A stretch of DNA of 64,000 nucleotides from the NCBI GenBank assembly GCA_024137785.1, contig JAHRHZ010000061.1:1556622-1620621 (forward strand). The letters are read 5' to 3'. Shown one piece after another: positions 1 to 42,100 of this stretch. Position numbers and translations under genes: made by a program. Under the pieces are notes generated by a model. It was not told where the DNA came from, made no database searches, and was given only the letters and a program-made list of their open reading frames with translations. The stretch comes from Ginglymostoma cirratum (Eukaryota). The stretch's first letter is position 1, and each line of letters begins with the position of its first letter.

Positions 1-123
1 ATTTTCTTGTCTGAGAACCCACAAATGCTGCATTTCCTTTAGACTTATCATTCATTTTTACAGGCTATGGAGCCATTTTGCTTAAGCACTAATTGACATT
101 TGCTTCTTTGGCAGAGCTCTTAC

Positions 124-192
124 CGTTCATTTGCAAACTGCGTTGTAATTTTCTTCATTTCTTCATCCTTGCTCTGAAGTTGCTGGTTCACT
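124..192 (-). CDS. DZIP3: DZIP3 exon, coiled coil: VNQQLQSKDEEMKKITTQFANE(R)
   Basis: cctttag / gtaaga, 69 nt, phase 2-2; resembles human DZIP3 LQRQIHAKDNEIKNLKEQLSMKR. Confidence 0.85.
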
Positions 193-3100
193 CTAAAGGA
201 CACAAGTAAAAATGTTACCATAACTTAAGAGAAAGGAGGAGATGTAGACTGTAAGGCCCACTGAGACTACTTCACCTATTTATCCACAATGGTTGAAATT
301 CTACTTCAATTCAACTACCTACATACAAACATGCAAATTAGGAGCAGGAATATTTGGCCCCTCATACACATTTCACCAGTTGGTATGATCATGGCTGACC
401 CAGTTCTGGACTAAACTCCACTTCCCGACCCACTCCTGATACCCTTTGACTTTCTTGCTCATCCAAATCTCATCTCCCTCTGCTTAAAAGTAGTCAACAG
501 CCCTGTTTCCACTGCTTTCTGGGGATGAGAAATCTAGATAGATGATTTTATTTATGAGAATTCTATTTGTTCTGAAATTTCAGGACATCTCTCCCATCCC
601 AAGAATCAATCTAGTTAAGCCTGTTGTAGCCCTTCTGAGACAGCTTATTCTTCGTTAGAAAAGAAGACTGAGCTTGGAAAAATATGTGCAGATGTGGTCT
701 CCCAGAAGCATATGTAATTGCAGCAAGACTCTATTTCTTTTGTGAACGAGCACATTTGCAATAAAGATGAACATACTACTCGCCAGCTGTTCCTGCATGC
801 TAGTTTCCTTCGATTTGTATCTGAAAGACCCTACACCTCACAAAACCCCCTGAATATAACATTTCCTTTGAAGGCAGGTATTTCAGTTTCATTGCATTTC
901 CTTTACCATTTGCAAGACGGAAACAAGAATCAGATACTGCAACAGGGACTAACACAGGTTTTTGCATTGTATTCACACCAAATCTGTTAGCATATGCTGT
1001 CATCACTCTATAAACCTGACAGTAACTTAAGTCTGCACATAGGCAATGCAGAGCTTCAGAAACTGCTGTAAGTAATTCCTCACTCCTCCACTGAATGGAA
1101 CGTTGACGTTCTTGAGGATAGAAATCAATTCAACATTGCTGACATGACAAAAAGTCCCATTTTTTAAACTCCATTAATATCACTGTAAAATCCCTTGAAA
1201 ATGCTAAGGTTCATTAAATGGGGTTTAAAAGAGGGTTTGTAAATGTCTTTCAAAATCCAAATTATTCAAGAATCCTTTTGGGCCTGAAAAAAAGTATTAT
1301 ATTTGTGGAATGCAAATTTCTCCATTCCATTATTTTTTAAAAAATCATAAATTAATGAAGTTTTGAAAAAAAATTATGACATTTCAAATTTAACTTCATT
1401 CTATGCACATGTTCTAATCATTATTTCAGTTCCTACAAATTATATACAGTGAATGATAACATCTGCTCATTTCCTGTCTGCAAAAAATTTTCAAAGTGAT
1501 TGCCTGCTTACATGCTTGATATTATTGCAGTCACTAGTTTCCAAAGATGCCCTTTAGTGGGCACCAGAATAAAATTAATATCGGGAAATGTGAAATCCAC
1601 ATTACAGAGCTCATTAGAACTCGTCTGGACAACTTTCTTGGAGGTCAGTGGAAGCAGCATAAGTTCATCACTGACCACATAATTCAAGCTAATGTATTTT
1701 ATATCTTGATTTTGAGATCCACACTGTGCATATTCTATATTCAGACACACCTAGATATTTCTAGCTGATAATATTCTTGGAGTCTTGAATACTGGTTCTC
1801 TGCACGGATCCTTTGTTGCTGCTCTTCCTTGAGCTTGGTTATTAATTGGTCTAAATTCCTTAAGAGAGCCTGTAAAAAAGTGAGACAATTAAAACAGGTG
1901 CTGAAATAAAATATTTTGTTTAAGTCACAAATTCCTCCCTATCAACCGCAGGCAGTTATACCTGCAAAATTATCTGTTCATGGTCATTTTCCAACACAGA
2001 TGCATATAGTCTGTTTTAAGAAATTATAATCACACATTGGCAGGATTGGATGAATTACAGATTAACAACCTTTTGTTTAAAAAAGACTTACTTGGTTTTC
2101 ATTTTGTAATGCAAGTAACTTTTGTCTCATTTCCGATTTCTCTTTCACATTTTGCCATAGGTGCTCCTGTACACTAATGGTTCCGTCACCTACTGATGAG
2201 GAGGAATACAAATCCTATAAGAGAAAATCAAATAGCTTAACTTCTCTCAAGACTAAGTCAGCATTGGAACATTTGAACCTGTCGCTATACCTACACCTTT
2301 CCTAGTGACAAAAAAATTTTCTGTGGAGTCTCCCAGCAAAGTTTTGGGATCAATTATTAAGGAAGTCTTAACAATGCACTGAGAAATCATAGAATCATCA
2401 GACAAAATCAATTTGGTTTCACAATAGGGAAATCATATTTGACAAATTTATTAGAGGTTTTGAGAATGGAACGGCTAGGTCAAATAAAGTATATTCAAAT
2501 AAAATGATGTAAGGTGTATGATTTATATATATTTTAATGCCAGTTATTTTGGATTTTTGAATTTTGAACTAGTGGCATATAGGTTTCTGTGTGTCTAAAG
2601 GGGTTTTGTGATTAATTTGTAAGTAAGCCATGGTGATTTCTTTTAAAGCACAGCGTCAGTGAGAGATTTTGTGGAGAATAAAGAGGTTTTGCTTATATTG
2701 GGAGAATTAACAAGAGAATAAAGTAAGCAGTGTAGTTTATTAGAGCTTTTAATAGAAGATTCTGGAATTTTTGCAGGCTTAGTGGAAACGCTCATAGCTA
2801 GGCCAAAAAAAAAACTTTGGGGTTTCAACATGGCAAGTTTGCAGAAATTTTGGCTGATTACCTCAGTGAAAGGAGCTTATTTTATAAGTTTCAGACCAGA
2901 CATTTTTGGATGAAACTCTGAAAGGGTTATTTGAAGCTGAGAAAGTACAGGCTCAATTGTATTAAGGATCTTTAAATAGGCTATCAGATTCAAGACAGAT
3001 AAGTGAAGTCACAGTTAAATTAATCCCCATAGATTTGAAAGCGTAACGAATCAGTCTGGTATGAGTACAGTATAGAAGTATTTTTGGAATTAATAGGTTT

Positions 3101-6100
3101 CTATTTTACTATGTTTTTAAAATCTTAAAATTTCTATTTTATGTAATTAGTTTGCTTTATTCTATTTTATCTTAATTTCTTTTGAGTCATAAACTTCTGG
3201 TTTATTGGTAAACTTGAATCTGCAGTATTGCATGCTTATGGTTCAGTGAAAGGCCACCTGTTAAAAGCAAACAAAAATTCTATCAAGCCAAATTTCAATC
3301 TGGGATCTGTTAGTACAGTAATGAACATCAGCCATGATCATAACAGTATACTTGGATTACCAAAAGGATTCAATAAGGTGTTGCTAAGATGTGGAAAGAT
3401 ATACGCTTCTGCAGTTATGGCTAATATATATTAGCATGGATAAAAGATTTGCTAAAAGGCAGGAGGCAAATTGTAATGATCACTGGAACATTTTCGCAGA
3501 TGGTATCCAATGGATTGCTGCAAGGATTGGTGCTGGAACCTCAGCTATTTATAGTATATATCAACGACTTGGACAAAGAGAAAGAGAATAATGCATCTAG
3601 ATTTGCTGACCATACAAAGCTCAGTGGAAATATGGACTATGAGGATTACACAGACAGTCTCCAAAGAAGCGTAAACAGCTTTAGTGAGTAAGAAATAGGT
3701 GGCAAGGGAATAAATCTGTGCAAGTGTGAGAGTACTCATTTTCTCATAAGGTTAGAAAAGCAGAATTTTTTTAAAGCATGTGAAACTTGATGTTCAGAAA
3801 GACTTGGATTTGCTCATGTGAGGGACACAAAGTTAGCATGAATGTACAGCAAGCATTAGGGAAAGAAATCACACCTGGGCCTGAATTGCAAGAGAAAGCT
3901 GTACAGAAGCTGTACAGAAGGAAGTATTGCTACAATGTACAAAGGCTTTGGTGAGACTACATCTGAAACTGAGTGCAGTTTCAGTCTTAATATGTAAAGA
4001 CATGCTTACACGGAAGGCAGTACAGTAAGGTTTACTAGATTAGTTCCTGGGATGACAGGGTTCTTCCATGAAGGGTGATTTCAATGAAACATGTGAGATT
4101 TATGAAGGAACTTGACAGGACAGACACCGAGGGGGCAATTCCTCTGGCAGGGGAATTTAAAATACAGTGACAGTGTCAGGATGTATGGCTTATCATTTAG
4201 GACTGAGATGAGGAGAAATTTCTTCACACAGAAGATTATGTATCTTTGGAATTCTCTACTTGAGAGGGTCATTGAAACAACTGCACAGAGGCTGGTATCC
4301 CGTCATCAAGTCACTCTTTATTCATGTGTGCACAGTACACCTGCTGTGGCTATCCAGCTCAGAGTCAGTCCCTGAACTGTGGAGATTCTGAATCCCCTGG
4401 TTATGTTGGTCAGCCAGGGTTTCCTGATTGGCCCAGGTTAACAGCCCCAGTCAAGGTTCAGTCAACAAGATCTACCTGGTTCTCGCCCCACCACCCCAAG
4501 TCTGGGATGTAGGCCTGGTCTTTCCCTGCAACATTTTCGCTCCAGGTCTGGTTCCTCTGACATGGATGGTGTGTACTGGACCGTAACCCGTCTCTTGCGC
4601 CCAAAGCATCTCGGGGAGTTTCGTCCTCTTCTTCTGGAGCTAATGGTATCGGCCTCTGAGGTTTCCTCAACACCAGAAGGAGGGGGAGAACCTACAGTTT
4701 CTGACAGGACTTCCGGCTGTTCTGAGGGGCCAAGTGTGTTTTGTTCCTGCTCCATTTGCAAGGGAGCAGATTTCAGATGATCCACGTTTGTTTAGGACTG
4801 CCTCACGACCCGAAGTTTGTAAGTCATAGGACCTGACCTCTTAAACCTCGCCTCGGACCCAAACAGGGCCATTTCCATGGTTCCGGCACCAAACTTCTTC
4901 CCCTGAAATGAACTGTCTCTCACTTAGAGGAAGCATGTAGCCGGCACTGGCATTCCTGCAGCTGTTTCAGGTGTGAATGCTTTATTTTAACTATATGCAA
5001 GGCTGGGAGAAACAGATTTTGGCTTCTCTGAGAATCAAAGGATCTGGAGAGCAGGTGAGAAGTGGAGTTGAAGCCAAAGATCAGCCATGATCGTACTGAC
5101 TGGGAGAGAAACGTTGATAAGCTGTACAGTCCATTCCTGTTCCTACTCCTTACGTTCTTCTATTAGTGATAGGTATAAAGATTGGAAGGTGAATGCAGAC
5201 TAATCAAAGCCAAACTAAGTTAAAACTGTCTCAAACACTATTTGCTTAATTTTCATAACAAAGTCAACATGCATTCTTCTATGCCAGAAGACATTCACCT
5301 TGATCCAAAGCAATTTTGATGTTTGAGTGTCAAACTCCTATTTAAGTTCACCGTTACCAAATATCAGGCCTATGTAATAAATTTTTAAAAATATATTTGC
5401 AAAAGATCACAGATTCAAACTTACTGATGAGGTACATACTGAGGAACTGGTGGACTCCTCATCAATGACAGTATTTTCAATGTCATCCAGCTCTCCGTCA
5501 CTTTGATAAGTTTGGTCAGGTAAGTCATCAAGTTTGTTGACGTCATGACTTGTTAGAAAGGGACCAGCATTACTGTTGTTAGGCATAGTACCAAATGCAA
5601 GTTGCGATGAAGCAGCTATGCTGGCACTAAATGTAGACACATCACAGCTGGAATTTGCCACTTGCTTCTTGCTTCTGCTATCATCCACCTGGTTCTCTTG
5701 CACCGGAATTGATAGGGTCTCACTGTTACAAATAAAACTCAGTTAAGTTTTCCTAACAAGTTTACTGATAATTAAAAATGAGGATAAATTACAGCTAAAG
5801 ACTTGCACTTTTCTTGGACAATCAAATACTCACTTTTATTCACAAAGGTTCTCTTTGTCTCCCATTACTTCCCACAACTTTGTTGATTTCTTTGCATAAA
5901 AACAATATGCGCTTATCCCAAGAGTACTGAACCACAGAGTGAAAAATAGACCATTGGGCTTTCTTTCCAGGTATAACAAAGAATAAAGAACACTACAGCA
6001 CACAAACAGGCTCTTTGACCCACAAAGACTGCGCCGATTACACTTTTCTGAACTAGAAACCTTTTGCGTTTACAAAGACCGTATCTCTCTATTCCCTGCC

Positions 6101-9100
6101 TACTCCCACATCTATCAAGCTTAAAATATGATAGTGGTTTAAAGTTAAATATTTCCAGAAATATAAGAACTTGAGAGCTTCATGTAGTACCTAACATTTT
6201 AAAACCAGATCTTAACACTATATTCAAACTTTAAGTGCTGGAATCATTCAAATAAGTTCATACCTGTGAACTCTCTTCAATAATCAACACTCATTTGAAA
6301 ATAGGGATCGCAATACTGGTCTGTTTCCCAGGGTTTGATCTGTGTCTTCCAAATGGTAAGGCACCAGCAGACATACACATATTTCTGACTGGAAGAAAGC
6401 AAGCAACTGCAGATTCTGGAATTCTGAAATAAAGACAGAAATCACTGGAGAAACTCAGCAGGCTTGGCAGCCTCTGAGGAGAGCATGCAGATTTAATGTT
6501 TCAGCTCCAGTGATTCTTAGGGGCTTGAAATGTAAACCCTTCTTTCTCTCCAAAGAAGCTTCCAGGCCTGCTGAGTTCCTCCAGAAATTTCTCTTTTTAT
6601 TTCAGACTGGAAATGCGCTGAAAGTGATAGAGAAGGGAAACAAGATGTATCCTTTATCCACATCTCCACAGCTCCAATCCTGACTATGTTGCTCATTGCC
6701 AGCCAATATTATTTGCTTCCCTGAACTATAGATCTCTACTTCCACTACTCCCCATCCTGCCTGCGCCTTTCCTATGTTAATGGGGTCAGAAGCCCAATAC
6801 CTGATAGTCCTTAGATCATCATATTCAAGTGCAGGGCAGGTATTCTGCATGGGGTTGTGCTGAAAAATTATCATCCAATTTCTCAGCAATAATAAGGTAT
6901 AGGCAACCAATGCTAACCTTACCAGCGATGCTCAAATCCCTCAAATGAATTTAAAGAATATGTAGTCCAAATTTTACAATATTTTAACTGGATGTCAACA
7001 TTACAATAGAATCATTAGACTGCATTTTACAGAGGGTGACTATTTGTCCCCTGGAAGGAAAGTTAGCCAGAAGGTCACTAGTTCCACATCTTGTGATGCA
7101 TCAGCATAAACGGTCTCATATAGACACAACATTGATATGAACAGGATATAGAAGCAAAGTAATTATGTCAAAATCTGGCCAAAATATAATTGAGTTTAAT
7201 CTAAATGCAGATAAATACGCTTATACATGAAGGGAAGAAACTGAAAATAAATTAAATTGCCAATTAAGTCCCCATTTGAAAATATTAAGTCTATTAAACA
7301 GGAACCTTACCATTGATGAGATGTTATATCCTGAGTTATATTGTGATTATCTTCAGTTGTTTGAGCCTGAAAAGAAAGAACTTAGTTTCAGAAAATTTCA
7401 TTCACACACCTTTGCCTTACTTTCCATCAAAGTAATGATTACACATTTTGAATGAAGTCTGTGTTGACATCAGGGAAAACAGCAGACCGACATACTTCTT
7501 TGTCTGTAGGTTGTAGCAAATAGATTAGAGCAGACTAGATTTAAGTGATGATGCGTTCATATGTTTCATTACAGAGCTTTTGTCTCTCCAGGCCATTAAG
7601 ATGGCCTGTTGTTCAATCATTACCAACTCTCCAGAATCGCTGTACATACTCCTTGTTTATCTTTTTCCAACTGCTTGATGCTTCCGACCACAAACCACAT
7701 TGTCAAGTTAAGACTCTACAGAAACACTTGTGACCAACTGGTTTGCCCAGCACTGAAGCTACACAGGCTCACTTGGCTTTCCCCAAGCTGCATCACAGGC
7801 TGCTACCAACACCATGTGGAATTCACACCAATATGGGTGCACACAAGTGTACTGTTCTACACTCAAACATGCTGAAATAATGCTATGCATCATAAAGCAG
7901 AGGGCAATCCCCCTCTGATAACTAAAACCGAAACACCCAGAGTGGCTCGCCTCGCCTCGCCCTATAATCTGTTAAAAGAAGTGTGAAAAATGGCATAACC
8001 TGCCTCTCACCCTCAATCTGTTATAAAGGAGTGGTTAAATGAAATAAACTCCTGATGCTCACTCTGTAATCAACAAGTAACAATTAATTTATCTAACCCT
8101 AACAGAGAGCAAATTACCTGAACTATTAACAAACCAAACAATTCCCCCTGAACAACCAACCACTGCCGAATAAAACAAGATTCTAATGGTATGCTGTTCC
8201 AATAAATAGAAGTTCCACTATGAAAGCGAAAATAAAAGAAATTAGAACCTAGTCCCTCAAAACTACAGCCAGGTTATGTCTTCCAGAATGTTCTGTGTCT
8301 TCTCCAACAAATTCTTCTGTCAAGAACGCCTTGCCCTTTTAATTTTTGCATCAAGAATATTAGCTAAGAGTGCCGCCATACCTTTATTTTAGATGGAGCT
8401 TATTCTAAGGCTTAGAGAATTCTGTGAGATCCAGAGACTCTTTCTTTTAGAGCTGATAGCTGTTCTCATGGCAGATGACAGTTGGCTCTCACACGATTTT
8501 CCAAATGACCTCATCTTTTATACCTTTGATGACATATCAATTTTTTACAATAGGATTGGTCCTATCTTGCCAAAACCATCAGATATAAATTTAATTGGTT
8601 TTTGGTAGCTAAGGGCCTGGATTAAATTAATTGGCTAAATTTTAAAACCTGTTGTCTTGGTAAAATTATTGCTTTGCCAGCTAACAGTATAGCCTTTTGA
8701 CACAAATGTTTCAATTTAGGTGCTCTGTGTACCTGCAAACCCACACCAGCCAAGAAAAACACATCATCTTTTAACGGGACCATACACTCTTCCTCAATCA
8801 TTTTACAGACACCAAATTCTAACATCCTGCCTTCCAATCCACAAATATTCTGCCCAACTTCACAACATTTGCTAGTGTCACTTAATTTAAATCATTGAGA
8901 TGACACCTGGATTGCAAATGTAAAGAAACAAAATGGGACCTCATTGATGTCATTTCATGGATAAGGTTCCCTGATTGCATGTTAGTAAAATTTTATGAAA
9001 CTGTTTCTGTTGAAACATGGCTGGGTGGCATGGTGGCTCAGTGGTTAGCACTGTTGCCTTACAGTGTCAGGGATTCAGGTTCAATTCCAGCCTTGGGAAA

Positions 9101-21100: not shown

Positions 21101-24100
21101 TGTGCATGTTGTTCATCAAGTACCATGATACCAGACCTGCCGATTTTCTCCAGCATTTTATGTGTTTGTTTCAGATTTCCAGCATTCCTAGTATTTTGCT
21201 TTTATAGGCACATAGGTGCCCCAGAGGATTTTGACAAAGTGGAGAGCAGTTTCTCCTTGAAGGACAGCCTCAGACACAGGGACACAGTTAATTTTAGAAT
21301 ATTCTGAAGGTGGAGGGTGATACATTGTTAACTAGAAAAAGGACATAAAGGTTGTCAGAAGTAGGTGGAATTGAGACCACAATCAAATCAGCTATAACCT
21401 TTCTGGAAGACAATGCAGGTTTAAGTCTTCTTTTCCTCATTTGTATGTACAATGTGGGACTTCCTGCCAGTTCCTGCAGGTCAAGAACTGACTTGTTCAG
21501 TCACATGAAGTTCCACAGAGGAACTCATGACCCTGACTAGCTATCATCCTTAAACTGAGAGACAGTATGCGATGATGATACTTAATGTGTCACGATTTGT
21601 CACCAGTGCATAATTTTTGGCAGAAATAATAAAACTGAATGAGCACATTAATATAATGTTGTGCTAAGAGTCATCAGCACAGCCAACTACTTACCGTTTG
21701 TTGACATTTCTCCTTTTGTCTGTGTTGGCGTTCCTATCAAATATTGAAACAAAAAGATTAGAGCTTTTTCATAGTTATGGGTTGCCCGAAAGTGCCTTCA
21801 AGTTACATTTTAGTACTTTTGAATTTATTGATAATAGCAAGTCGGCCTTTTAGCATGTAGAGTAGTCTGGCCAATTCTAAACATTGCTCAATTTCATTCA
21901 ATCACAATCATTCAGTCAGTACGACACTGCGGTAGAGTGAGACAAAGACTGAGTGAATTTCTGACTATACTGTTGAAAATTTAGTTCAAAAAGTGGAAAC
22001 TCAATGCAAAAGTGGGACGGCAGTGCTTTATTTGAGGTTTACTGCAAGAAACCAGATTGAGAAGTCAATGGGAGACGATAAAAGACATGAATTGAAAGGC
22101 CAACTCACAGTAAGACCAGTGGGAGTGTGTGGTCACAAACCACACTGTGACATGAATGGAGGGAAATAAACTGACTAAGTATTAGATTCATACTGGGATT
22201 TTTAATATCTTTTTAGTTTATAAATAAGAAATATTATTACAATAAAGTATAAAGAGCAGGGAATCTTGAGTAATTTGTTTATAAGTTAAAGTAAATACAA
22301 TAGAAACAGCAGGGTGGGTAATATGTAGCTGCTGCAACATGCGGAAGCTGATGGACACCAAAGTGATCCAGAGCAATCAGATCTGGAAAAAGGTTGGCAG
22401 TTCACAGAACATTGCATGTGAGTCAAGAAACTGGAGTCTCAGCTGCAGGCACTGTGTCAGGGAAGGGAAAAGTCACCAAGACAATTTGCTTCAGAGGACG
22501 GTCATATGCTTCAGGTTAGGTAATTCAAAATTGGTCTAATGATCATGGACAGGTGGCTGTGATTGCACGCAAGGCAGGTATGAAGACCATGAGTGTTAAA
22601 ATTCAGGAGCCTTGGTCCTGGCAATTCTCCAATAGTTACAAGTTTCTTGCAAACTGATAATCTAGACAGCAGGACGGATGAACAAACTATCTTGGCACCT
22701 TGGTGCAGGGTGCCATTCAAATGAGAGGAGGAAATAGGAATTTAGCTGTGCTAGGGGACAGTATACTAAAGGGATAGACACTGTTCTCTGCAGCCATCAA
22801 CAAGAGGTTTGAAGTCTGTTTTGCCTGCCTGATGCCGAGATTAAAGGACATTGTTTCAGACTAACAAAGAAATTGGGAAGAGGGAAGGCAAGTTCCAGGA
22901 GCCCTCATCCACGCTGGAACCAACAACATTGTTAAGACTGGAAAGGACACTTTGCTGAAAGATTTTAAACAGTTAGGAGCTAAATCAAAAGCAAGAACCT
23001 CCCAGGTAATAATTTCTGGATTACTATCTGAGCCATGGGTAAACTGGCATAAGGTGAATAAAGTAATGGAGTTATACTGAGGTTGTACACTATGTTGGTT
23101 GAGGCCTCTTCTGGTCACCCAGTTATAGGGAGGATATTATTAAGCTGGAGAGGGTTCAGAATGGATTTACCAGGATGTCGCCAGGACTGGAGGGTTTGAG
23201 TTATAAGGAGAGGCTGGGACTTTTTTCACTGGAGTGCAGGAGGTTGAGGAGGTGACCTTATAGAGGTTTATAAAATCATGAGGGGTATAGATAAGGTGAA
23301 TGGCAGGTGTCTTTTCCCTAGGGTGGGGGATTTCAAGACTAGACGGCATTTTTTTAAGGTGAGAGGAGAAAGATTTAAAAAGGACATGATCGATTTTGTT
23401 TTAAACATATAGTGGTTTGCATGTGGAATGAACTTCCAGAGGAAGTGGTGGATACGGGTACAGTCACAATGTTTAAAAGATATTTAGATAAGTTCTTGAG
23501 TACGAAATATTTAATAACTAAATAAGCATTTGCAAATGAAGACTAAAAAATGATAAAGTGATGTCAAAAAGCAGGGAAATAAGATTAGATAAAGTTGAAA
23601 AGGGTTTGAATGGGATGAATGGTCTTCTCCATTGTAATCTATGGTCAATGGAACCATTTGGTAATAGGTGACCAACATATATTTACTGAATACTTCAAAA
23701 GACGACTTCTACACAATTATAGAAACTATTATTTTCCTTTCCATTTGTACTGTACCTTGTTGAAAAAATGACAACAGCAACTGCATGACATCGGCTACAG
23801 GTTTGCCCAGATAACCAGCCAGTTGATGGTGATCCTCCCAGAGTTTTTCAACAGGACAATTTTTAAGCTCCTTTAATGATTTACGATCTGCTCCTAGGCT
23901 CACAAGGACTTCAGTGATTCTGTCCCACTCAATGGCAAATTCAGGTTCCTCAATTCCGGTGTTCAGAGTTTCAAACAGAAGCTTGTTTCGAAAGTTCCAA
24001 AGACGCAATACAGATGCACTTTTGCTCTGATCATTTGCCAATGGTTCAGCGTCCCATCCACCGCGTGGTGCAGGAAGGATCTTTAGGTGTCTAATAAGTG

Positions 24101-30100: not shown

Positions 30101-33100
30101 ACCACAACCTCCTTGCTGTTGTATTCATGCCTTGCCTAATAGAGGCAAGTATCCCATATGTCTTCCTAACCACCTATTTCTGCCTTCAAGGATTTATGGA
30201 CATGCACACCAAGGTCTCTCTGATCCTCTGTACTTTAGAGTGTGCCACCATTCAACAGGTTAGTCTTCCAAAAATACATCACCTCACACAGGAATAAATT
30301 ACATTTGCCATTGTTTGGCCCATCTATACTATCCTGTAGTAGATGGATTTCCTCCTTGCTCTTTACCAAACCAGCAATCTTCACGTTATCTGTGAACTTA
30401 CTGATCATATATTCATGTCTAGATCATTAACTTATAGAACAAAAGGCAAAGGATGCAGCACTGAACGCTGTGGTATGCCAGTGGACAGAGGCTCGCTGTT
30501 ACAAAAACACCCTTTGACCATCACCCTCTATTTCTTGTAGTAAACTCACTTTGGATCCTACTGGACAAATTGCCCTGTATCCTATGGGCTCAACTTCCTA
30601 GCCAGTCTCCCATACAAGACCTTATCAAAAGCTTTACTGAAGTCCGTGTAGACTTCATCAACTGCACTAGCCTCATCTACACACTTTGTCACCTGTGTGA
30701 AATACTTGATCACATCTGTAGACATGATCACCCCTTTACAAAAGGCGATGGCCTAGAATATTATTGCTAAGCTATTAATCCAGAGACCCAGGTGATGACC
30801 TGGGGTCCTTGGTTTAAATCCTGCCATGGAAGATGGTGGAATTTGAATTCAATAAAAATCTGGAATTAAGAGTCTTATGATAACCATCAGACATTTTTTC
30901 GATTGTCTGAAAAAAACCATCTAACACACCTGATGTCTTTTATGGATGGAAACTGCTGTCTCTACCTGGGCTGGACTACATATGACTCCAGGCCCACAGC
31001 AATGTGGTTGACTCTTAACTGCTCTCTGGGCAAGTAGGGATAGGCAATAAATACTAGCCCAGCCAGTAATGCCCATATCTCTTGAAAAAAAAAAGCAACA
31101 CTGACTATCCTGATTAATCCTTACCCTCTTCAAGTGGAGATTAATTCTGTTCCTCAGAATGTTTTGTAACAGCTTTCCTACCACAGATGTTAGATCACTG
31201 GCCTGTAGCTTCCTGGTTTATCCCAGTCTTACATTAGACAATTACTTCAAAGAAAATCTAACTAACTAACTTCAAAGAAAATCAGGCAACCACTTTGGAG
31301 GTGGCTTAAAATAGATTTAATTGATTGATATCGTGAATGAACAGGCTGTCGTATGAAGATAGGTTAGACAACCTGGGTTTGTCTCCACTGGAGTTTGGAA
31401 GTGTGAGGGGTGACTTGATTAAAGGCTTAATGGCCTTGATAAAGTGGACAGGGAAAGTATGTTTCCTCTGTGAGTCAGTCCAGAACTAGGGGGCACTGTT
31501 TAAAAATTAAGGTTTGCTCTTTCAGGACAAGAGTTGAGGAGATTTTTTCTATCCCAGAGGGTGGAAGATTTTGAAGCTCTCTGCCTCAGGTGGTGGAGGC
31601 AGGGGCATTAAACATTTTAAAGACAGAGGTGGATAGATTCCTGTTAGACACGGAAATCAAGAATTATTGAGGTGGGTAAGTTGTCATGTGAAATTCAAAA
31701 TACATACAGACCATCCATGCTCTCACTGAATAGCACAGTGGGCTTAAACTTGTGCTCCTATGTTTGTATGCTCATTGTTCTCAATCTAAAGCTGGCACCA
31801 CTTGCTTCTGTCTGCCTGAACACAGATTACAGAGTGTTGTTCATGTGTCACTTTTGACATATTAAAAATTAAAGATTAGTTGAGTGTCAGAACAAACAAA
31901 GCGTGCTGAAATTGTGATGTCTTCTTCAACTTACTGAATTTCTCAAACTCTCGGTTAAATTCATCAAACAAAGGCTTCAGTTTGGGTAGCCGATCTTGTT
32001 CTTCACCCAGGGCAAATACGAGCTCTCCCATCTTCCAGACATCTTTGTGACTAGTCATTTGTTCCATCAGCATGTTTGGTCTTTGTTCAGATGGGGTTAC
32101 AGCTAGCACCTTTATTTCTTCTTTACTTAAAGCTTTTCTTGAAAGCAGCTTTTGAGCAAAGTTGAGGAGATTTTCCATATCATAAAGAATCTGGATTATA
32201 ACATTTTTGTAGCTATACAGGAAGCACAGGCTACACTGATCACCTAAAAAAGAAGAAAATAACTGTTTGTACGCAAATCAGGTTTATTAGGAAATCTCAT
32301 TCAGGAGGAGGTGAATGGCCTCCACTAGCCGTTCAAAAGGAGCTTGCAGCTCATCATCAGACAATTGTTCAGAGGGAGTATGACTTTGCAACTCAGTCTC
32401 TGAAAAACTGCATCAACTTTTTCCATTGTTTGGAACAAACTGCCAGGTCTTAAACCAAACAAGAAAAATGAGATTAAAAAAAGAGGATTCCTAAAATAGA
32501 AAGGAAAAATCAGATATCGCAAAATGGACTGTTAATTCACCACTAGCCGAACTTGCATGGCTGGTATTAACCAATTACAGATCCTGAGCCAATTAGAAAA
32601 CATTATAGCAGATGAATGTTTTTAAAAACATGCTACTTTAGGAAACTAAATGGGTTGAAATAGTGAGCACCGCTAGTATCAAAGTACAAGAAAAAAATAA
32701 AAAGTGAAGTGATAAAAGCTGTCACAACAGAAATCTCAAAACAGATTATGTCACAATTATCACTGATATCAAGGAAACAGAAGCTAGGGAAAATTCTACA
32801 GCTGGTAACAATATTGCTTTTAATGGTAATGGTGTTTTAGAATGAAAGACTGCTGTGAAACCAGATTTAGGATTGACATGGTATTTTGCAAGAAGGAAGG
32901 CATGACCGAGATAAAAAATAAGTCTGCAGAAATCATCCGGAAGCAGGAGGAAAAGCATCCTGACCACCTGGTTTGAACCTTCATCCTGAAAGGTTTCCAA
33001 AATCCATTTACACCAAAAGTGTTATTCTATTTAAATAATTAGCTCAGTGGAGGCCTTTAAACTAAGATCAGCTCAGCACAGGGAAAATTAAAACTCTAAT

Positions 33101-36100
33101 CTTACCCAGTTCCAAAATATAAGGTATCCATTCCTTTAGTTCTCGGTGATTAGAAAGATTCTCATCTTTAAACGTCATTAAAAATTGTCGGATTTTAAAA
33201 TTGCAATTCCACTCCAAAACATGGTTTACAATCATTTCTGCAGTAATTTCACTGTTTTTCTCCATAAATGCTTCTTTCAAATTACAACTGATTATTAGTT
33301 CAGGTATTTTTCCAGTTTCAACAATTGCACTTTCAATCAATTTTCTTTTCGTAGCGATTTCATGGAACAAGCGACATTTATCTGCAAAAAGCAACAGAAT
33401 TTGGTAGATTTTAATCATTCATTAAAAGTCACATTCATATTTATATACATATACATTTGTCAAGTAGACAGTATTTGAAAACCCAATATTTCACGTTTTC
33501 GTTGGAACATACCGTGATAGATAATATCAAACAACACCCCAACAGAGGTATCATACTGCTTCAGCATAAAGGCTAAATTTAGGATTATCATATTGTACAT
33601 CTTTATGATCTCTTTTATAAAAATTATAATCTTTAATATCTTTAAAGCTCTGTTTTTATTAAAGCATCATTTCCCCAAATTTCCCAAAGAGTTGCAACGC
33701 TCTTTGGTAAATCATAACTCATTTGATATGCATACATCTTCATCTGCATGATGGAAATTTATAAAGGAAAGTATTTAATATTCTGTTTATTATGCAATGA
33801 GCAAATTTCCTGGTAATTTCTACAAGTTTCCAATAATGGTATCAGTAGTAAGAGCACAGAAACAATAGCTATTTGTACCATAGTGACAGATAGGATAATT
33901 TTGCCTAGCTCTTCATACCTAAGGAAATGAAAACTACACCCTTTACATAATAAATGATAAATAACGAATGTAATGTCTTGGCAAAATGTTGATCCTAAAA
34001 GCATGTTTAAACAAATTCCTAGTCGTTATTTGAAGTATAGTATGATATGTGACATTTAATGTTTATTCAAGGAAATGGTTGATCCTATGGTTCCCTGAGC
34101 AGGCTATCCCAATCATTTCATAGAATGCTTTGTTGCCAGAACTTACAAACACCAAGATATAGCTTGACTGATGGTAAGAAAAGCCCTTCTGTTAGAGCCT
34201 TCCTACATGCACAACGTCTCAGCCCTCCACACATAGCCCTCGAGGTAACTAGTGTTACGGAAGAAACTATTGACCACCTACTTGTGGAATTTAGCTTTGC
34301 AAAAAGGTCAGGACAGAGGGAGATACAATGGCTTTTTGTCAAAGTTCAACACAGGCAGCCCTCCAGAGATCCAGGGGCAGAGTGGAGGTAATGGTATCGA
34401 CAAGATTGTATACAGAGAGTTGGTATGGACTTGCTGGTTTGAATGGCTTTCTACTGTATTGCAATAACCACATGATTGCAGTGCACAAACATAAACAGAA
34501 ATTGCTAGAGAAACTGAAAAGGTATGGCAGCATCAGCTGAGAGAAAATAGAGTTAATGTGCTAATCCAGTGTCCCTTCTTCAGTTCTACAGATGCTGCCA
34601 GACCTGGTGAGTTTCCCCAGCAATTTCTGTTTTTGTTTGTTTTAGATCTCCAGCATCCACCGTTCTGTTTTACTTTTATGACTGTAGAGTGCTCGTCATT
34701 GGATGATCATAAGCTTTCTTTCATTAACATGTAAAAATGTGATACCACATGAGGAGTTTTACATGACACGCATCTTCTTCCAATATTATTAAATCATAAA
34801 AAATATATTTTGGTTCTGTCTTCACAAAGGAGGACATAACTCACATCCCAAAATTGTTGGGGAACACACGGTGTAGTGATAGAGAAGAACTGAAGGAAAT
34901 TAGTATTAGTAGAGAAATGGTATTGGGGAAATTGATGAAATCAAAGGCCGATATATCCTCAAGGCATGATAATCTACATAGCAAAGTACTTAAGGAAGTG
35001 GCTCTGGAAAGAGCGGATACATTGGTGGTCTTCTTTACAGATGCAATAAACTCTGGAACAATTCTGTGGATTGGAGGGTAGCTAACGTAACACCACTATT
35101 TTAAAAAGGAGGTCAAGAGAAAACAGAATTGTAGACCGGTTAGCTTGACATCAGTAGTACAGAAAATGCTAGAGCTCATTGTTAGAGATTTAATAGCAGA
35201 GCACTTGGTGACAGGATTGGACAGAGCTGGCACAGATTTATGAAAGGAAAATCACGCTTGACAAATCTATTGGAATTATTCAAGAATGTAACTAGTAGAT
35301 GTTTTTTACTTGGACTTTCAGAAAGTATTTGAAAGGGTCTCCCATGAGAGATTCGATGTGAATGGGATTGGGGCTGGGGTGGGAGGTGTTAGTGTGCTGC
35401 CTTGAAGAACTAACTGGCGAGGAAACAAACTGTAGAAATAAACGGGTCATTTTCTGAGTGGGAGCCAGCGGGGTACTGCAGAGATCAGTACAAGGACTGC
35501 AGCTATTCACAATATATATTAATGATTTGGATAAGGAAACTAAACATATCATCTCCGAGGTTTCAGTCAACACAAAGCTGGGTGGGAGGATGAACTGTGA
35601 GTAGGATGCAGAGAAGCCTCAGTGTGACTTACACAAGTTGTGTGATTGCGCAAATGCACAGTACCTGAAGTATAAGAGGCATTATCCACATGGTTGCAAA
35701 AACAGGAAGGCAGTTTATTATCTGAATGGCAACAGATTGGGAAAGGGGGAGGTGCAACAAGACCTGGGAATCCTTGGGAATCCTGGGAATCATTGAAAGT
35801 ATGCATCCCACTACAGCAGGAGGTGGTGAAGATGACAAATGTGATGTTGGCCTTCATAGTGAGAAGATACAAGTACAAAACAATGGTACAGTGCCTTGGT
35901 GAAACCACACCTGGAGTAGTGTGCAGTTTTAGGTCTTCTTGTCATAGTCACACAGCACAGAAACAGATCTTCGGTCCAACCATAATCCCAAACTAAATGA
36001 GTCCCACCCACCTGCTCCTGGCCCAAACCTCTCCAATTCATGTACTTACCCAAGTGTCTTTTAAACATTGTAATTATTGCCTACATCCACAACTTCCACA

Positions 36101-39100
36101 GGAAGTTCATTTCACAAGCGAACCAGCCTCTGTATAACAAAATTCCCCCAACGGTTTTTTTTAAACTTCTTCCTCTCACCTTAACAACATGTTAAGTCTC
36201 ACACTAAGACACTAACACCTCCCACCCCAGCTCCAATCCCATTCACATCGAATCTCTCATGGGAGACCCTAGTCTTGAAACATCCCAATCTAGGGAAAAG
36301 ACACATACAATTTATCACATCTATGCACCTCATGATTTTATAAACCTCTATAAGGTCACCCCTCAACCTCCTATGCTCCAGTGAAAAAGGTCCTAGCCTT
36401 TCTTTATAGCTCAAACCTTCCACACCCAGCAACATCCTGGTAATTCTCTTCTGAATCTCTCTAGCTTAATAATATCCTTCCTATAACAGGGTGACCAGAA
36501 CTGGGCACAGTACTGCAGAGGAGGTCTCACTAAATCCTGTACAGCCTCATCGTGACTTTCCAACGCCTATACTCAAAAGGACAGAGTAATGAAGGCAAAT
36601 GTTCTAAACGCCTTTTTAACCACCCTGTCAATATGTGATACAAACTTCAAAGAATTATGTACCTGCACCTCTAGGTCCCTCTGTTCTATAACACTACCCA
36701 AAGCCCTACCATTAATTGTATAAGTCCTGCCCATTTGTTGTACCAAAATGCAATACCTTGCATTTATCCAAATTGAACTCCATCTGCCATTTCTCAGCTT
36801 ATTGACCTACTTGATCAAGATTCTTTTGTAGTCTTAGAAAATTTTTTTCATTTTGTTGGAGGATGGATGTTCTGGCTGTGGAGGGAGTGCAATAAAAGAT
36901 TTACCAGGCTGATTCAGAGGATGGCTGGTCTGATGTACAAAGAGATGCTGGTTTAGTTTGCACTATATTCACTGGAATTTAGAAGAATAAAGGGAGGAAT
37001 CTCATGGAAATCTACCCTAATAGGGCTATACAAGGGAAATGATTCCCCATTAGTGGGGAGTCCAAAACCAATGCTCACAGTCTAAAGGAGGAGGTCATTT
37101 AGGACAGATGGGGAAAAATTTATTTACCCAGAAAGTGCTGAGTCTCTGGAATCCTCTGCTACAGAAAGTGGTTGAGGTCAAAACATTGAATGTTTTCACA
37201 AAGGAGGTAGCTATAGCTTGTACGGCTGAAGGGATCAACGATTATGAGGCGAATGGTGGAATGGGCTGAAAGGGCCAAATGGCCCATTCCTGTTCCTATT
37301 TTCTATAGGAGTGTGTTTGGAGGCATGAGTTGTGGGGTTGGGAAGTGGAGTTTCCAAAGTTAAGCTGCGAAAAACATTAATTCTTGCAGACCGTACAAAC
37401 TTCATTAAAAGGAGAAATTTATATTACACCCCATGACCCATGTAATCTCTGGATTTTCCTTTGTTGGCCCTTAGTTTCTTCTAGGTATCTTATACCTCTT
37501 TCAGATGTTTTGATGGTCATTGGAGGTTGGAGAAGTCTCGCCATTATGTTACTGGCATGAGTGTGGGATGGCCTTTACTGGCCAGCACATCTTTTCCTGC
37601 TGATTGTTTTCACATGTTTCAGGCGGGCAAGCACAATGAAAAGCTCTTTAGTTCTTCTCAACAATTCTTCTCCTAACATCTTCCTTGCATCAGAACATTG
37701 AATGAACTTCAAATGTACTTAGTTGGTTGTAAAGCACTTTAGGATTTCCTGAAGTTATTTAAGTCTTTGTTTTTCACTCCACCATAAGAACAGCAACTTC
37801 CCTCTTCAAAATAAAACATATACTACCCCAAAGCACTCCACAGAAGCATAATAAAGCAAAAAACAGAAGTCAAATCAAACAGGACATTATGAACAGTGAC
37901 TGAGAAAAATGATCAAAGGTGTCGATTTTTAAGAAAAACCTTAAAAGGAGAAGTACAGTTAAGGGGAATTCCCGAGTTTGTGGTTCATACAGCTGAAGGC
38001 ATACTCAACTACACAGCTGAGAAAGTGGGTAACGCACAAGACTGAGGTGATGTGGAATTGGAGGAAGATATAGCAGTGAAGCTGCAAAGGGATTTAAAAC
38101 AAGAAGCTAAGCAACAGCCAAGACTAAAACCATTAATGACGGACTAAACAACCTGTTGACAGAGGTAGTTCTGTTTCTTTTTCTTTCCTTCCTTTTTCAT
38201 ACTCATTCTGTTCATTACATCGATTTGATGCTTCCAGGGTATCTACAGCCTTTTGTTCATATTTTCTATAAAAAGAGAATAAAATGTTAGATCAAAAGGA
38301 AACCCAGCTTCTCTTTTGTAGGGCAAGTTGAATATACTGAATCTGTTGATAAGACTCATATAAGTTTAGTGCCCCACAACTGGCCCAGACATTCCCAAAG
38401 CTGGTTTCTCATCTCTGAAGTGTAGGCTGGAGTTGTGCATCAGGACCATTCCCAATCACTGACACAGCTAACACTGTGGGAATTGTCTGGGAAATCTAAA
38501 CATTTACAGGGCAATGCCCCGCCTTCTAGGCCTCTCTTAAAAAGCCCTTTAAAGTTAGAAACTTCAGAGTCTTCAGCTCAGTTAGACTTAACAGTAACCG
38601 AGGAAACACCAGGGGATTAAAAATGTATAACAGTTCCCAGGAAACCACTAAACTGACCTCCCCAATTGTACATGAATAACTTGACACCCTTAACACCTGA
38701 CACTGTATCTGACATGTATCATTCATCTCCCTCCATCCCAGAACCAATGTAGTTCTTGAGGACCAAATACCCACAATGCCATCCATTGGTCTGGCCGCTC
38801 CCCTCTCCAAAACCCAGACCCAACAAAAATCCTCACCATTAACCTGACCCTACCTCACTGGACATGTCAGACACAACATGACCCTCCCTGAAACATTGTT
38901 AGCCATCAGATATTGAAACAATCCATGATTACATGCAGTATGACCTGGATAATATTCCAACTTAGGCTGACAAGTGGCAAGTAACGTTTGTGCTACACAA
39001 GTGGCAGGCAATGGCCATCACCAACAAGAGAGAATTTAACCATTGCCTTTTGACACTCAATGGCATTACCATCACTGAAGCCTCCACTATCAACATCCTG

Positions 39101-42100
39101 CTGATTATCTTTGATCAGTAACTGAACTGGACCAGCCACATAAATACAATGATTAAAACAGCAAATCAGAGGCTGGAAATTCTGTGATGAGTAACACACC
39201 TCTGGGCTCCCCATTTGCCTGGATGTGTGGAGCTTCTGTGATGCTTAGGGACCTTGATACCATCCAGGACAAAGCAGCTTACTCGATTGACATCCCATCT
39301 ACCAGTTTCAAAATTCCATTCCTCTACCTCTTTTGCGGCAGCGGTGTGTAACACCTACAAGATGCACTGCAGTAACTGACCAGGATTTCTTGACAGGCCC
39401 TTCCAAACCCAACACCTCTACCAGTGAAGGACAAGGACAGTTGATACATGGGAACACCATCGCCTGCAAGATCCCCTCCAAGCCACTCACCATCCTGACT
39501 TGAAGTATATTGCTGTTCCTTCACTGTCACTAGGTCAAAATCCTGGAACTCCCTTCCGAACAGCATTGTGGATATCCCTACATCCAACAACTGCGGTGGT
39601 TCAAGATGACAGCTCGGCACTACCTTCTCCTGGTTAGGAATGGCCACATCCCATAAAGTTAGAGGAAAAAAATCCCAACTCCTCAGATCCTCAAAAGTGT
39701 CTCTACGGACCTTGAGATACAGTCAGAAACTGAACTGAACTAAACTTCAAGAAACTGCTAGAAACCAAGTCTGTGAAGTGATTCAAGCTCTCCAACGTAG
39801 CAAAACAAAGAAAACTAATCAAAAACCTATTTGTGGAAAATAAAAACACTATCTTTACATTAACATTTCCCAATTAGTAAAATCCAAAATGATTTGACTA
39901 AAATGAACTAGCAATCACAACATCAACTTCCAACTTTATTCCCCAATTATACACAATAATTTCCTGTCTCTTGCATTTTATACATTCCCACTACCTCTGC
40001 CGACCCACACTCTGTCCCATATCCTGCTCAGCTCTGCCCTCTGGCCCTTCCTACTAAGCCTTGTTGCTTTACTACTTCTCCACAAAATTCATTCCATCAA
40101 TTATCCTTCTGATAATTTTTTCTAATGTTCAAGCTGCTTTCTCAAATTGAATGCATTTAAATTACACCAATGCAGTAACACAAATGTGGCGTGATTAACA
40201 AATGCAGTTTGTTCTTTTAATACACTTACATAGCTGAAATTTGTGGTGACAGGTCTGAAATCTTTATCTCAAACTGCAATAGAAAAAATTGAAAAAGTTA
40301 AAGCAATTCACAAGATTAAAAAAGAGCATAAAATTAAGAGAAGGCAGAATTAAGCAGTTCAGAACCCGAAACCGTGTAGAAATCACAATAGTTTGGGGCA
40401 AAACAGATTACTTAAATAATAGAGATCAAAATTAATAAACTAAGATATCAAACAGTGAACTCAGACTTAAACTACAACTTAGTGCCTGGGGATCAAACTG
40501 ACTATCTGACTAGAACCAGAAACAGACTGAATTCCGCTGATACTACCGCATTTACTTTAAATGTGAACATGCTGAAAAGTTCATCTGATGTGTCAACCTA
40601 GAGGATTGTGTGTAAAGAATCAAAATATTATGCTAGGCATCAGGGAATTGATAGCAAATGTTCTAAGCTCACTAATGTTACCCTGTCATAGGGTCACACA
40701 GTTCTTTAACAGTCTAACATATTTTACTGTCTTTTAGGTTCTTACCTCAGTCTGAATACTTCCTGAAGCTTGGTGAATTACACATTTTATGATCAGACCT
40801 TTACAGTCACTGCTCATACATTTCATTGAACAGAAATCCTGAAATATATAAAACTAAATGAATTCATTTTTGTTTTTGAAGTCAAGGCAAATGCAGAATA
40901 AAACTTGAGGCCTGATTTTCAGAACTGCGGAACTTCAAAAATGGTGGTGGGACCTGGACTTGAAAATCCAGTTCCTGTTTCTGGCAGATTCCAATTCTTG
41001 CCAGAAGAGGGAAGGGTGTGATTCAAATAGTTGTGAAACCTGAACTCAGCAGGGACATTTGAATTTAATTGCTGAGTTTAAAGAGGCTCTGTTTTGGCTG
41101 TTCCAGCACCTTAATCTTCAGTGGGGGAGCCACAATTTGATGGAACAGGTTCATACAACGTGAAGGGCAAGTCAGAATCCGTTTCAGTGTCATTATGTTT
41201 TCTTTTAAATTTTGCACTCTCAACATTGAAAAGAAAAGCTTAAATTGTCATTGAAAAATGAAAAAAAAATTTTATTTTCAGGCCATGTAACATAGAATAG
41301 AAAAAAAACATAACTACCTGTTCCACATTTTCCCCAGAGCGCTTTAATGACATTTCCCAAGAGCTATTGTTATACTGTTACAAATGCCAGGCTCAGTTTC
41401 CAAAGGTTCAAAAGCACATGTCACAGCAAAGGGCTCTGGGTTCAGAGCTTGATTATGAGTTTGGAGATGATCTTGAAGGATCTGGCTACTGAATAGAGAT
41501 GTGTTTGTTTTTGTAGTATATTATTTGAAGAAATTTGAAAGCCTTGATGAGGTTCCATGAATGGGAGTTTCTTTTCACTGTCAAGTGTACATGAGTTAAA
41601 AACTGTATTACATTGTTGGAAGGTTTTTCATAAAGATCTGGTTCCTGAGGCCTGCTGGATACATGGTGATTGTGGAAATAGCATGAGAAGTTTGACAAGG
41701 TATACAGGTGGGTGGGGGCAATGTCTGTACAGGGGTCGGAGTTAACATGGAGATGGTATGGAGATGGAGGGATAAAGACTACGGGCCCCAACAACTCCAA
41801 AATCAACACAAATAAAGTCCCAGGGAACACAGGCTTCCTAATAATGCTGCCTTGACACTCACTTATTCTCAAGCTTGCTAATGATCTGCTTCCCAGGTTG
41901 GTGGGCTGGAATCTATCATTGACCAACTCACCGACCACCAGTGTCTAATGGGGCACTCCAAACTTAGGCAGGCCTATAAGTTGAAAATGTCAGGACTCGA
42001 TCTATCTCCTTTGGTCACAAAAGTCTGGCTCTTGATCTTTCAGGACAGTAGAAGCAGAGCTTCAGAAGGGCACAGACAAGTTGGTGGAGTGGTTAGCCAG

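Follow-up and report, generated by a model that had tools for sequence, protein, structure and literature searches.

What do two symmetric exons in the middle of a shark DZIP3 gene encode, and what might such an insertion do for an E3 ubiquitin ligase? We address these questions using a 64,000-nucleotide (nt) window of the genome of the shark Ginglymostoma cirratum (assembly GCA_024137785.1, contig JAHRHZ010000061.1, positions 1,556,622 to 1,620,621), whose minus strand carries most of the gene. Between its Cys-His domain and its HEPN exon, this gene has two further exons, here called A and B. Structural modelling predicts that exon B very probably folds as a CARD, whereas exon A, which gives a weaker match, is probably a shortened death fold of the same general kind.

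Two symmetric exons precede the HEPN exon

Exon A consists of 276 nt (92 codons) and exon B of 309 nt (103 codons), both on the minus strand (Table 1). Each has a pyrimidine tract with an AG acceptor, a GTAAG donor and a single open frame, and each is of phase 1-1, such that A, B, the HEPN exon and a subsequent 39-nt exon form four phase 1-1 cassettes in succession. A total of 13 exons can be chained from 59633 to 9779 to give 716 codons with zero stops. An earlier inspection of the letters alone (the sequence-only reading) had proposed two symmetric exons of these sizes in frame before the HEPN exon, and the splice sites and frame confirm this proposal.

The same reading had called for RNA junctions as a check on inclusion, and both the A-B and B-HEPN joints have been found. 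In the portion of run X17 that was read (approximately 24 in 100), 10 reads join A to B, 6 join B to the HEPN exon and 10 join the HEPN exon to the 39-nt exon. Contigs from X1 and X5, whose RNA nature is a guess, include the same three joints. None of the listed runs is recorded as RNA, and run X18, with 0 reads on the locus, constitutes no test. The joint into exon A is absent among the joints listed (141 further joints are unlisted, and reads are broken at a repeat at 38161-38198), and it rests on annotated orthologue proteins and on an X1 contig of 839 nt, 588 nt of which fall on A plus B.

Exon B matches 18 named cartilaginous-fish proteins with identities of 56-99% (E 1e-58 to 3e-28), reaching 98-99% for the whale shark and zebra shark proteins, and therefore this exon is not a product of chance. 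When both strands were scanned for splice sites under strict criteria, only exon B and one piece within the HEPN exon were recovered; exon A was not, its pyrimidine score being under the threshold. We also considered a hidden exon in the A-B intron and rejected it, as 32290-32470 has no open frame and the RNA joint skips the region. The depth of the X5 contigs is 279 at the upstream joints (window 38153-40838), 29 at the A-B and B-HEPN joints and 127 at the HEPN-39-nt joint. Contig depth is a poor measure, and these values are a hint that many transcripts of that run skip both exons.

Predicted folds of the two modules

AlphaFold2 models of both modules were built from 16-row alignments and compared by VIA-align with 48,161 solved chains, using a tool whose caution level for helical bundles is Z 13. 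The model of module B (pLDDT 89.8) has a split helix 1 (2-10/12-21), followed by helices at 25-34, 40-48, 54-66, 68-80 and 88-100. A split helix 1 is a CARD trait, and the predicted six-helix bundle with this feature is shared by module B and the CARD family PF00619 (Apaf-1, caspase-1, ASC, NOD1). CARD entries head the structural list for module B (best Z 11.9, rmsd 2.3, 86 aligned). Among its best 50 rows, 48 are titled death folds, the other two are an unnamed protein and a designed protein, and the first non-CARD death fold appears at rank 30. The closest folds are the CARDs of caspase-1, ASC, NLRC4, NLRP1, NOD1 and Apaf-1, with those of cIAP1 (ranks 19 and 25), MDA5 (rank 21) and RIG-I (rank 31) lower in the list, and identity in the structural alignments to CARDs is 10-21%. 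Foldseek places the Apaf-1 CARD first (prob 1.00, TM 0.64/0.70, E 0.2), and the top Atlas matches are CARD clusters at 0.85, which we treat as a lead only. Thus the model and the structural list agree with the sequence-only reading that the second module is CARD-like, and we are highly confident in this predicted fold.

The model of module A (pLDDT 87.8) has a split first helix and five further helices, of which helices 2 and 3 are short. Its best structural match is the caspase-1 CARD (Z 7.8, rmsd 2.6, 79 aligned), no row reaches Z>=8, and 45 of 50 rows are titled death folds. The Apaf-1 CARD is second in its Foldseek list. We consider a shortened death fold the probable outcome for this model, and the module looks like a degenerate CARD. 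The earlier description of module A as CARD-like holds in that its predicted death fold is closest to CARDs, but the match is weaker and the domain is shortened. A winged helix or other fold, which had been named as a possible refutation, heads neither structural list; death folds lead both, and no Pfam winged-helix match was found, although absence from a list is not exclusion.

Sequence comparisons provide a second line of evidence. A profile of A plus B (12 rows) was searched against 1.84 billion representatives and yielded 4 matches at E<=0.001, of which one is an orthologue from skate, one is a fragment, and the remaining two are divergent proteins spanning both modules (E 4e-16 and 2e-10). 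The divergent proteins are products of further DZIP3-like genes, P0133 from the sevengill shark Heptranchias and P0134 from the stingray Hemitrygon, and both species also carry the main DZIP3 gene. Their modules are 20-34% identical to those of the main gene, and they keep HEPN, coiled coil and RING in the same CARD-CARD-HEPN-coiled coil-RING core, with no PF19179 match on either protein. The module stretches of both paralogues match Pfam CARD. For P0133, the module A stretch scores 26.2 bits and passes the cut-off of 23.9, and the whole protein scores 21.2. Through this paralogue we are leaning towards a six-helix CARD-type fold for module A as well. A 5-row profile that includes the paralogues gave the Apaf-1 CARD as its best PDB match on A (E ~0.09) and BCL10 weakly on B, and a narrow module profile returned only 2 weak, unrelated matches among PDB sequences. 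Hydrophobic residues fill 43 of 194 columns in all 16 rows, which is only a proxy for the CARD core h1-h14 of Boyle and Monie.

Some details of the paralogues are worth recording here. P0133 has Hop/SGTA-like TPRs, and P0134 and the main stingray gene are listed with the same longest contig of 197,924,442 bases and may share a chromosome. We also considered whether B arose from A by tandem duplication. Profile-profile comparison of the modules gave a probability of 0.1-0.3%, no better than a reversed control, and therefore a common recent origin is not supported.

Several results weigh against assigning these modules to the CARD family. Foldseek found no match at E<=0.001 for either module, both VIA-align Z scores are below the caution level, and Pfam CARD (PF00619) matches neither the window exons nor any of 12 main-gene stretches (no match in 12/12). 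Module A of the main gene has ~6 residues fewer around helices 2-3 than the paralogues, exon A gave no usable Atlas match, and in Ginglymostoma cirratum the last helix of the module contains a proline, a letter shared by the read contigs, which show no other letters on 33104-33384. Because both Z scores are below the caution level, the fold call leans on the uniform death-fold lists and on the sequence evidence.

The gene, its HEPN domain and other features of the window

Sequence comparison identifies the gene as the cartilaginous-fish DZIP3. When traced by tblastn with the zebra-shark DZIP3-like protein P0002, it extends from at least 59633 down to the window start, and no further N-terminal exons were found by tblastn in the window upstream of 59633. 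Pfam finds a weak TPR region, Cys-His PF19179, HEPN PF18738, the helical families PF24525 and PF24905 and RING-H2 in full-length orthologues, and no Pfam family covers modules A and B in the orthologues scanned. The window does not reach the helical domain or RING-H2; PF24525, PF24905 and the RING were found on orthologues, so the RING presumed from the sequence alone is present in the full-length proteins. P0002 carries PF19179, HEPN, PF24525, PF24905 and RING-H2 together, and its nearest mammalian relative is DZIP3.

A search with the C-terminal 400 residues returned 449 proteins. The best 120 comprise 24 cartilaginous-fish-type and 96 mammal-type DZIP3 proteins, the latter almost all from named therian mammals (94/96). 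Within these best 120, the named mammalian entries are all called DZIP3 except for one cat protein named for its RING only, and no entry is named TTC3. Mammalian DZIP3 (hRUL138), an RNA-binding RING-H2 E3 ligase, resembles the shark protein in PF19179, a HEPN without the catalytic His, a Lys-rich stretch, PF24525, PF24905 and RING, with ~40-43% identity over the C-terminal 400 residues.

The catalytic histidine of HEPN (R-x(4-6)-H) is missing from 10/10 main-gene rows and 4/4 mammalian rows, and is present in 8/8 HEPN-NTPase outgroup rows. Its loss argues for an RNA binder rather than a nuclease, and the shark DZIP3 HEPN is likely to be non-catalytic. An active RNase effector was rejected for this reason. 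Invertebrate DZIP3-type HEPN proteins differ, in that 8 aligned HEPN-NTPase proteins keep an R-N-x(3-4)-H motif, and none of 10 fetched invertebrate proteins of this type contains a module match.

The features assigned to the gene are collected in Table 1. Among the Cys-His exons, the last one is the one inside the stretch tested with RNA.

Table 1. Features of the shark DZIP3 gene in the 64,000-nt window and the evidence for each
Feature	Coordinates	Strand	Evidence
TPR-like region, two exons	59633-59509, 58119-57999	-	tblastn; weak TPR matches below the Pfam cut-off on P0002
Cys-His TTC3/DZIP3 domain, three exons	53588-53466, 43110-43009, 40838-40746	-	tblastn to P0002; PF19179 E 4.9e-38 on P0002
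Short linker exon after the Cys-His domain	40230..40273	-	RNA joints on both sides
Linker exon before exon A, ends in phase 1	38153..38265	-	tblastn to P0002; RNA joint on upstream side; phase
Exon A, first module, predicted shortened CARD-like death-fold domain	33106..33381	-	splice sites; frame; RNA joint to B; AlphaFold2; VIA-align; Pfam CARD match of paralogue P0133
Exon B, second module, predicted CARD domain, cassette exon	31935..32243	-	RNA joints on both sides; AlphaFold2; VIA-align
HEPN exon, DZIP3-type, without catalytic His, phase 1-1, 219 codons	23756..24412	-	Pfam PF18738 E 2.8e-30; RNA joints; motif comparison
39-nt exon after HEPN, phase 1-1	21695..21733	-	RNA joint; phase
Lys-rich basic stretch, two exons	18001-17913, 9835-9779	-	splice sites; frame; match to P0002
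Low-complexity and coiled-coil exons (span 90..7366)	~7366-7311, 5721-5455, 2214-2092, 1869-1751, 192-124	-	tblastn to P0002; boundaries approximate, outside the RNA-tested stretch

The introns contain many related, diverged repeat copies throughout. Two inverted intronic repeats of ~3.3 kb (12260-15854 and 47997-51261, 88-91% identity) bracket the exons from the Cys-His domain to beyond HEPN, and inverted repeat pairs of this kind can promote exon skipping or back-splicing. Two open reading frames inside the pair have no Pfam match. The B-HEPN intron includes broken frames on the minus strand (27974-29021) that by eye are like a Harbinger-type transposase, with no Pfam match at E<=0.1, and a LINE-like reverse transcriptase fragment (RVT_1, E 0.0004) is found in an intron at 52549-52917, also on the minus strand.

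Distribution and conservation of the modules

Our sampling covered cartilaginous fish and therian mammals, with birds, reptiles, amphibians, bony fish, lampreys and invertebrates reached only through the representative search, which was negative for them. Module A is present in 25/25 chondrichthyan main-gene entries, including that of the chimaera Callorhinchus, module B in 21/25 and HEPN in 14/25. Entries missing from the latter two counts represent annotated isoforms from which B, HEPN or both have been skipped. Exon B is thus a skippable cassette, and in these annotations B and HEPN can each be skipped without the other. Annotated isoforms without HEPN occur in mammals as well as in sharks, so jawed vertebrates in general may have conserved the skipping of this cassette. 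HEPN is absent from the only entries returned for Callorhinchus and for marsupials. Another variation is seen in P0010 (Heterodontus), where a 25-residue, duplication-like insert in module B (residues ~500-525) may be genuine or may reflect faulty annotation.

None of the 96 mammal-type DZIP3 entries has either module, consistent with the earlier claim that mammalian DZIP3 does without them. The distance from the Cys-His motif to the HEPN start is 95-113 residues in the 28 mammal-type entries that carry both landmarks versus 306-339 residues in 12 chondrichthyan entries with both modules, making the mammalian spacer ~215 residues shorter. A CARD remnant in mammalian DZIP3 was sought and rejected, the best score with broadened profiles being 2.7 bits.

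Within cartilaginous fish the modules are well conserved. Comparison with the skate protein P0021 gives identities of 46/88 for A, 58/102 for B, 52/109 for the Cys-His domain and 10/46 for the linker, so the modules equal the Cys-His domain and exceed the linker by more than twofold. Relative to the whale-shark model, A differs at 6/91 positions and B at 1/102.

A possible function in CARD docking

We believe that the CARD pair might serve as a docking module on the shark DZIP3 E3 ligase, a proposal to which we give an even chance, with putative partner, pathway and activity. The A-B pair would recruit a partner that has a CARD of its own, likely a cell-death or immune signalling protein, and the RING-H2 domain would ubiquitinate it. 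CARD B would be the main binding surface, and the dead HEPN domain and the Lys-rich stretch would bind RNA. Skipping of the B and HEPN exons could then switch the partner input and the RNA input on or off, leaving the RING in place. The partner, the chain type and the pathway of docking are all conjectural in this scheme. CARDs bind mostly CARDs (bioRxiv 10.1101/087908), and human DZIP3 is described in two reports as binding RNA and building K63 chains (PMC9298949; bioRxiv 2023.10.05.561086).

Among known CARD proteins, the cIAP1/2 ligases combine CARD and RING, and cIAP1 likewise joins an internal CARD to a RING. Unlike these ligases, caspase-1 or the tandem-CARD sensors RIG-I, MDA5 and NOD2, shark DZIP3 has no BIR, helicase, NACHT or protease domain, and its predicted CARDs are instead flanked by Cys-His and HEPN domains and lie below Pfam detection in the main gene. 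Two further facts count against a docking function. Most signalling CARD proteins have the CARD at the N-terminus, unlike the mid-protein location seen here, and mammals manage without either module.

An internal location would suit a different arrangement, in which the CARDs act within the protein by packing on HEPN, coiled coil or RING to restrain the ligase, or by driving self-assembly. In cIAP1, an internal CARD holds the RING in check, and cIAP1 is among the structural matches of module B noted above. The modules sit beside HEPN, and module A is never missing from the 25 chondrichthyan entries, as expected of a structural part. However, the RING is ~800 residues distant, and because annotated isoforms can lack either B or HEPN without the other, an interface between the two is unlikely to be obligatory. 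We regard this intramolecular role as rather unlikely.

Perhaps the modules are instead CARD-derived pseudodomains, folded and conserved for a non-CARD interaction or a spacing role, and en route to the loss seen in mammals. The absence of a Pfam CARD match in the main gene where a paralogue keeps one would fit this explanation, as would the deletion and the proline in module A, its greater variation relative to the whale-shark model and, as a weak hint of frequent skipping, the X5 contig depth of 29 at A-B versus 279 upstream. Against these must be set the conservation of the modules in sharks, rays and chimaera, where they match the Cys-His domain in this respect, and the confident prediction of a complete fold for module B. 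We judge decay of this kind improbable.

We find it very improbable that the protein is a RIG-I-type sensor, in which RNA on HEPN would expose two CARDs to MAVS or a caspase and the RING would supply ubiquitin chains in cis, because, despite the combination of tandem CARDs with an RNA-binding domain and an E3, the occurrence of HEPN_DZIP3 in invertebrate NACHT receptors (PMC8260672) and the altered antiviral readouts attributed to human DZIP3 (PMC7761617; bioRxiv 2023.10.05.561086), the RIG-I-like layout of N-terminal 2CARD, DExD/H helicase and CTD is lacking, no helicase family was found by Pfam in 8/8 proteins scanned, MDA5 and RIG-I stand below the caspase-1, ASC, NLRC4, NLRP1, NOD1 and Apaf-1 CARDs among the module B folds, the CARDs are internal and A looks degenerate.

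Evolutionary history and the relation to TTC3

The sequence-only reading had also proposed that the shark architecture is ancestral. The main shark gene is identical to mammalian DZIP3 at 88/200 HEPN and 38/54 RING positions, versus 68/219 and 59/217 HEPN positions for the CARD-bearing paralogues. The best trees group shark and mammal DZIP3 against the paralogues, with support of 48/14 for HEPN and 80/52 for the C-terminus (rows without the region were excluded, namely P0035-P0037 from the HEPN tree and P0011 from the C-terminal tree). Under such a grouping, the CARD pair would date from the common ancestor and mammals would have lost it, which could happen this cleanly because both exons are symmetric. 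On the other side, support is weak, long branches meet, and alternative trees with a chondrichthyan-only origin are not rejected (p-AU 0.31 for HEPN and 0.29 for the C-terminus). The ancestral proposal is thus favoured by the best trees without being settled by them. We think it somewhat probable that the CARD pair is older than the split between sharks and mammals and was cleanly lost in the latter.

Could the pair be older still, and shared with TTC3? The two ligases share the TTC3/DZIP3 Pfam families by name, and TTC3 presumably lacks HEPN. The TTC3 motifs quoted in the sequence-only reading resemble by eye the ends of modules A and B, and more so in P0133, which offers a lead only. Homologue searches yielded no TTC3 sequence, TTC3 was not returned by the A plus B profile at E<=0.001 among the 1.84 billion representatives, and a metagenome scan for TTC3 relatives gave a single locus, whose contig looks bacterial and matches neither the modules nor HEPN. 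The portion of a TTC3 study available to us describes two TPR pairs and a C-terminal RING, and only these domain types (PMC9239942). A 2016 preprint includes TTC3 as one low-confidence CARD candidate, and its main text does not mention DZIP3 (bioRxiv 10.1101/087908). The broadest proposal is that tandem CARDs are ancestral to the whole TTC3/DZIP3 family, persist with HEPN in at least two cartilaginous-fish lineages, were removed from mammalian DZIP3 by deletion of two symmetric exons, and exist unrecognised in human TTC3. We offer this idea tentatively and consider it doubtful at present.

Novelty and implications

The accessible part of one survey places CARD among the fusions of the DZIP3 HEPN family, with no species or domain order named there (PMC3710099). 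A full-text literature search, with subscription journals and InterPro structural labels outside its reach, found no description of CARDs in DZIP3 generally or in shark DZIP3. The arrangement is a new architecture within known families, for which the HEPN-CARD fusions and the TTC3 CARD candidate were prior hints.

Two unannotated, predicted death-fold domains are thereby added to a vertebrate E3 ligase so far regarded as an enzyme of RNA binding, chromatin and the cell cycle. The difference between sharks and mammals would amount to a clean natural deletion, and the shark paralogues bridge the sequence gap to the old hint of a CARD in human TTC3. If the broad family proposal is true, then the RNA- and ribosome-linked TTC3/DZIP3 ligases would belong to the death-fold signalling proteins and would tag partners that carry CARDs, and a connection between CARD pathways and human TTC3, encoded in the Down-syndrome region, would have been overlooked. 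In the oldest living lineage of jawed vertebrates, shark DZIP3 is itself a candidate for regulating CARD signalling, and its natural isoforms, which occur with or without CARD B and HEPN, provide built-in controls.

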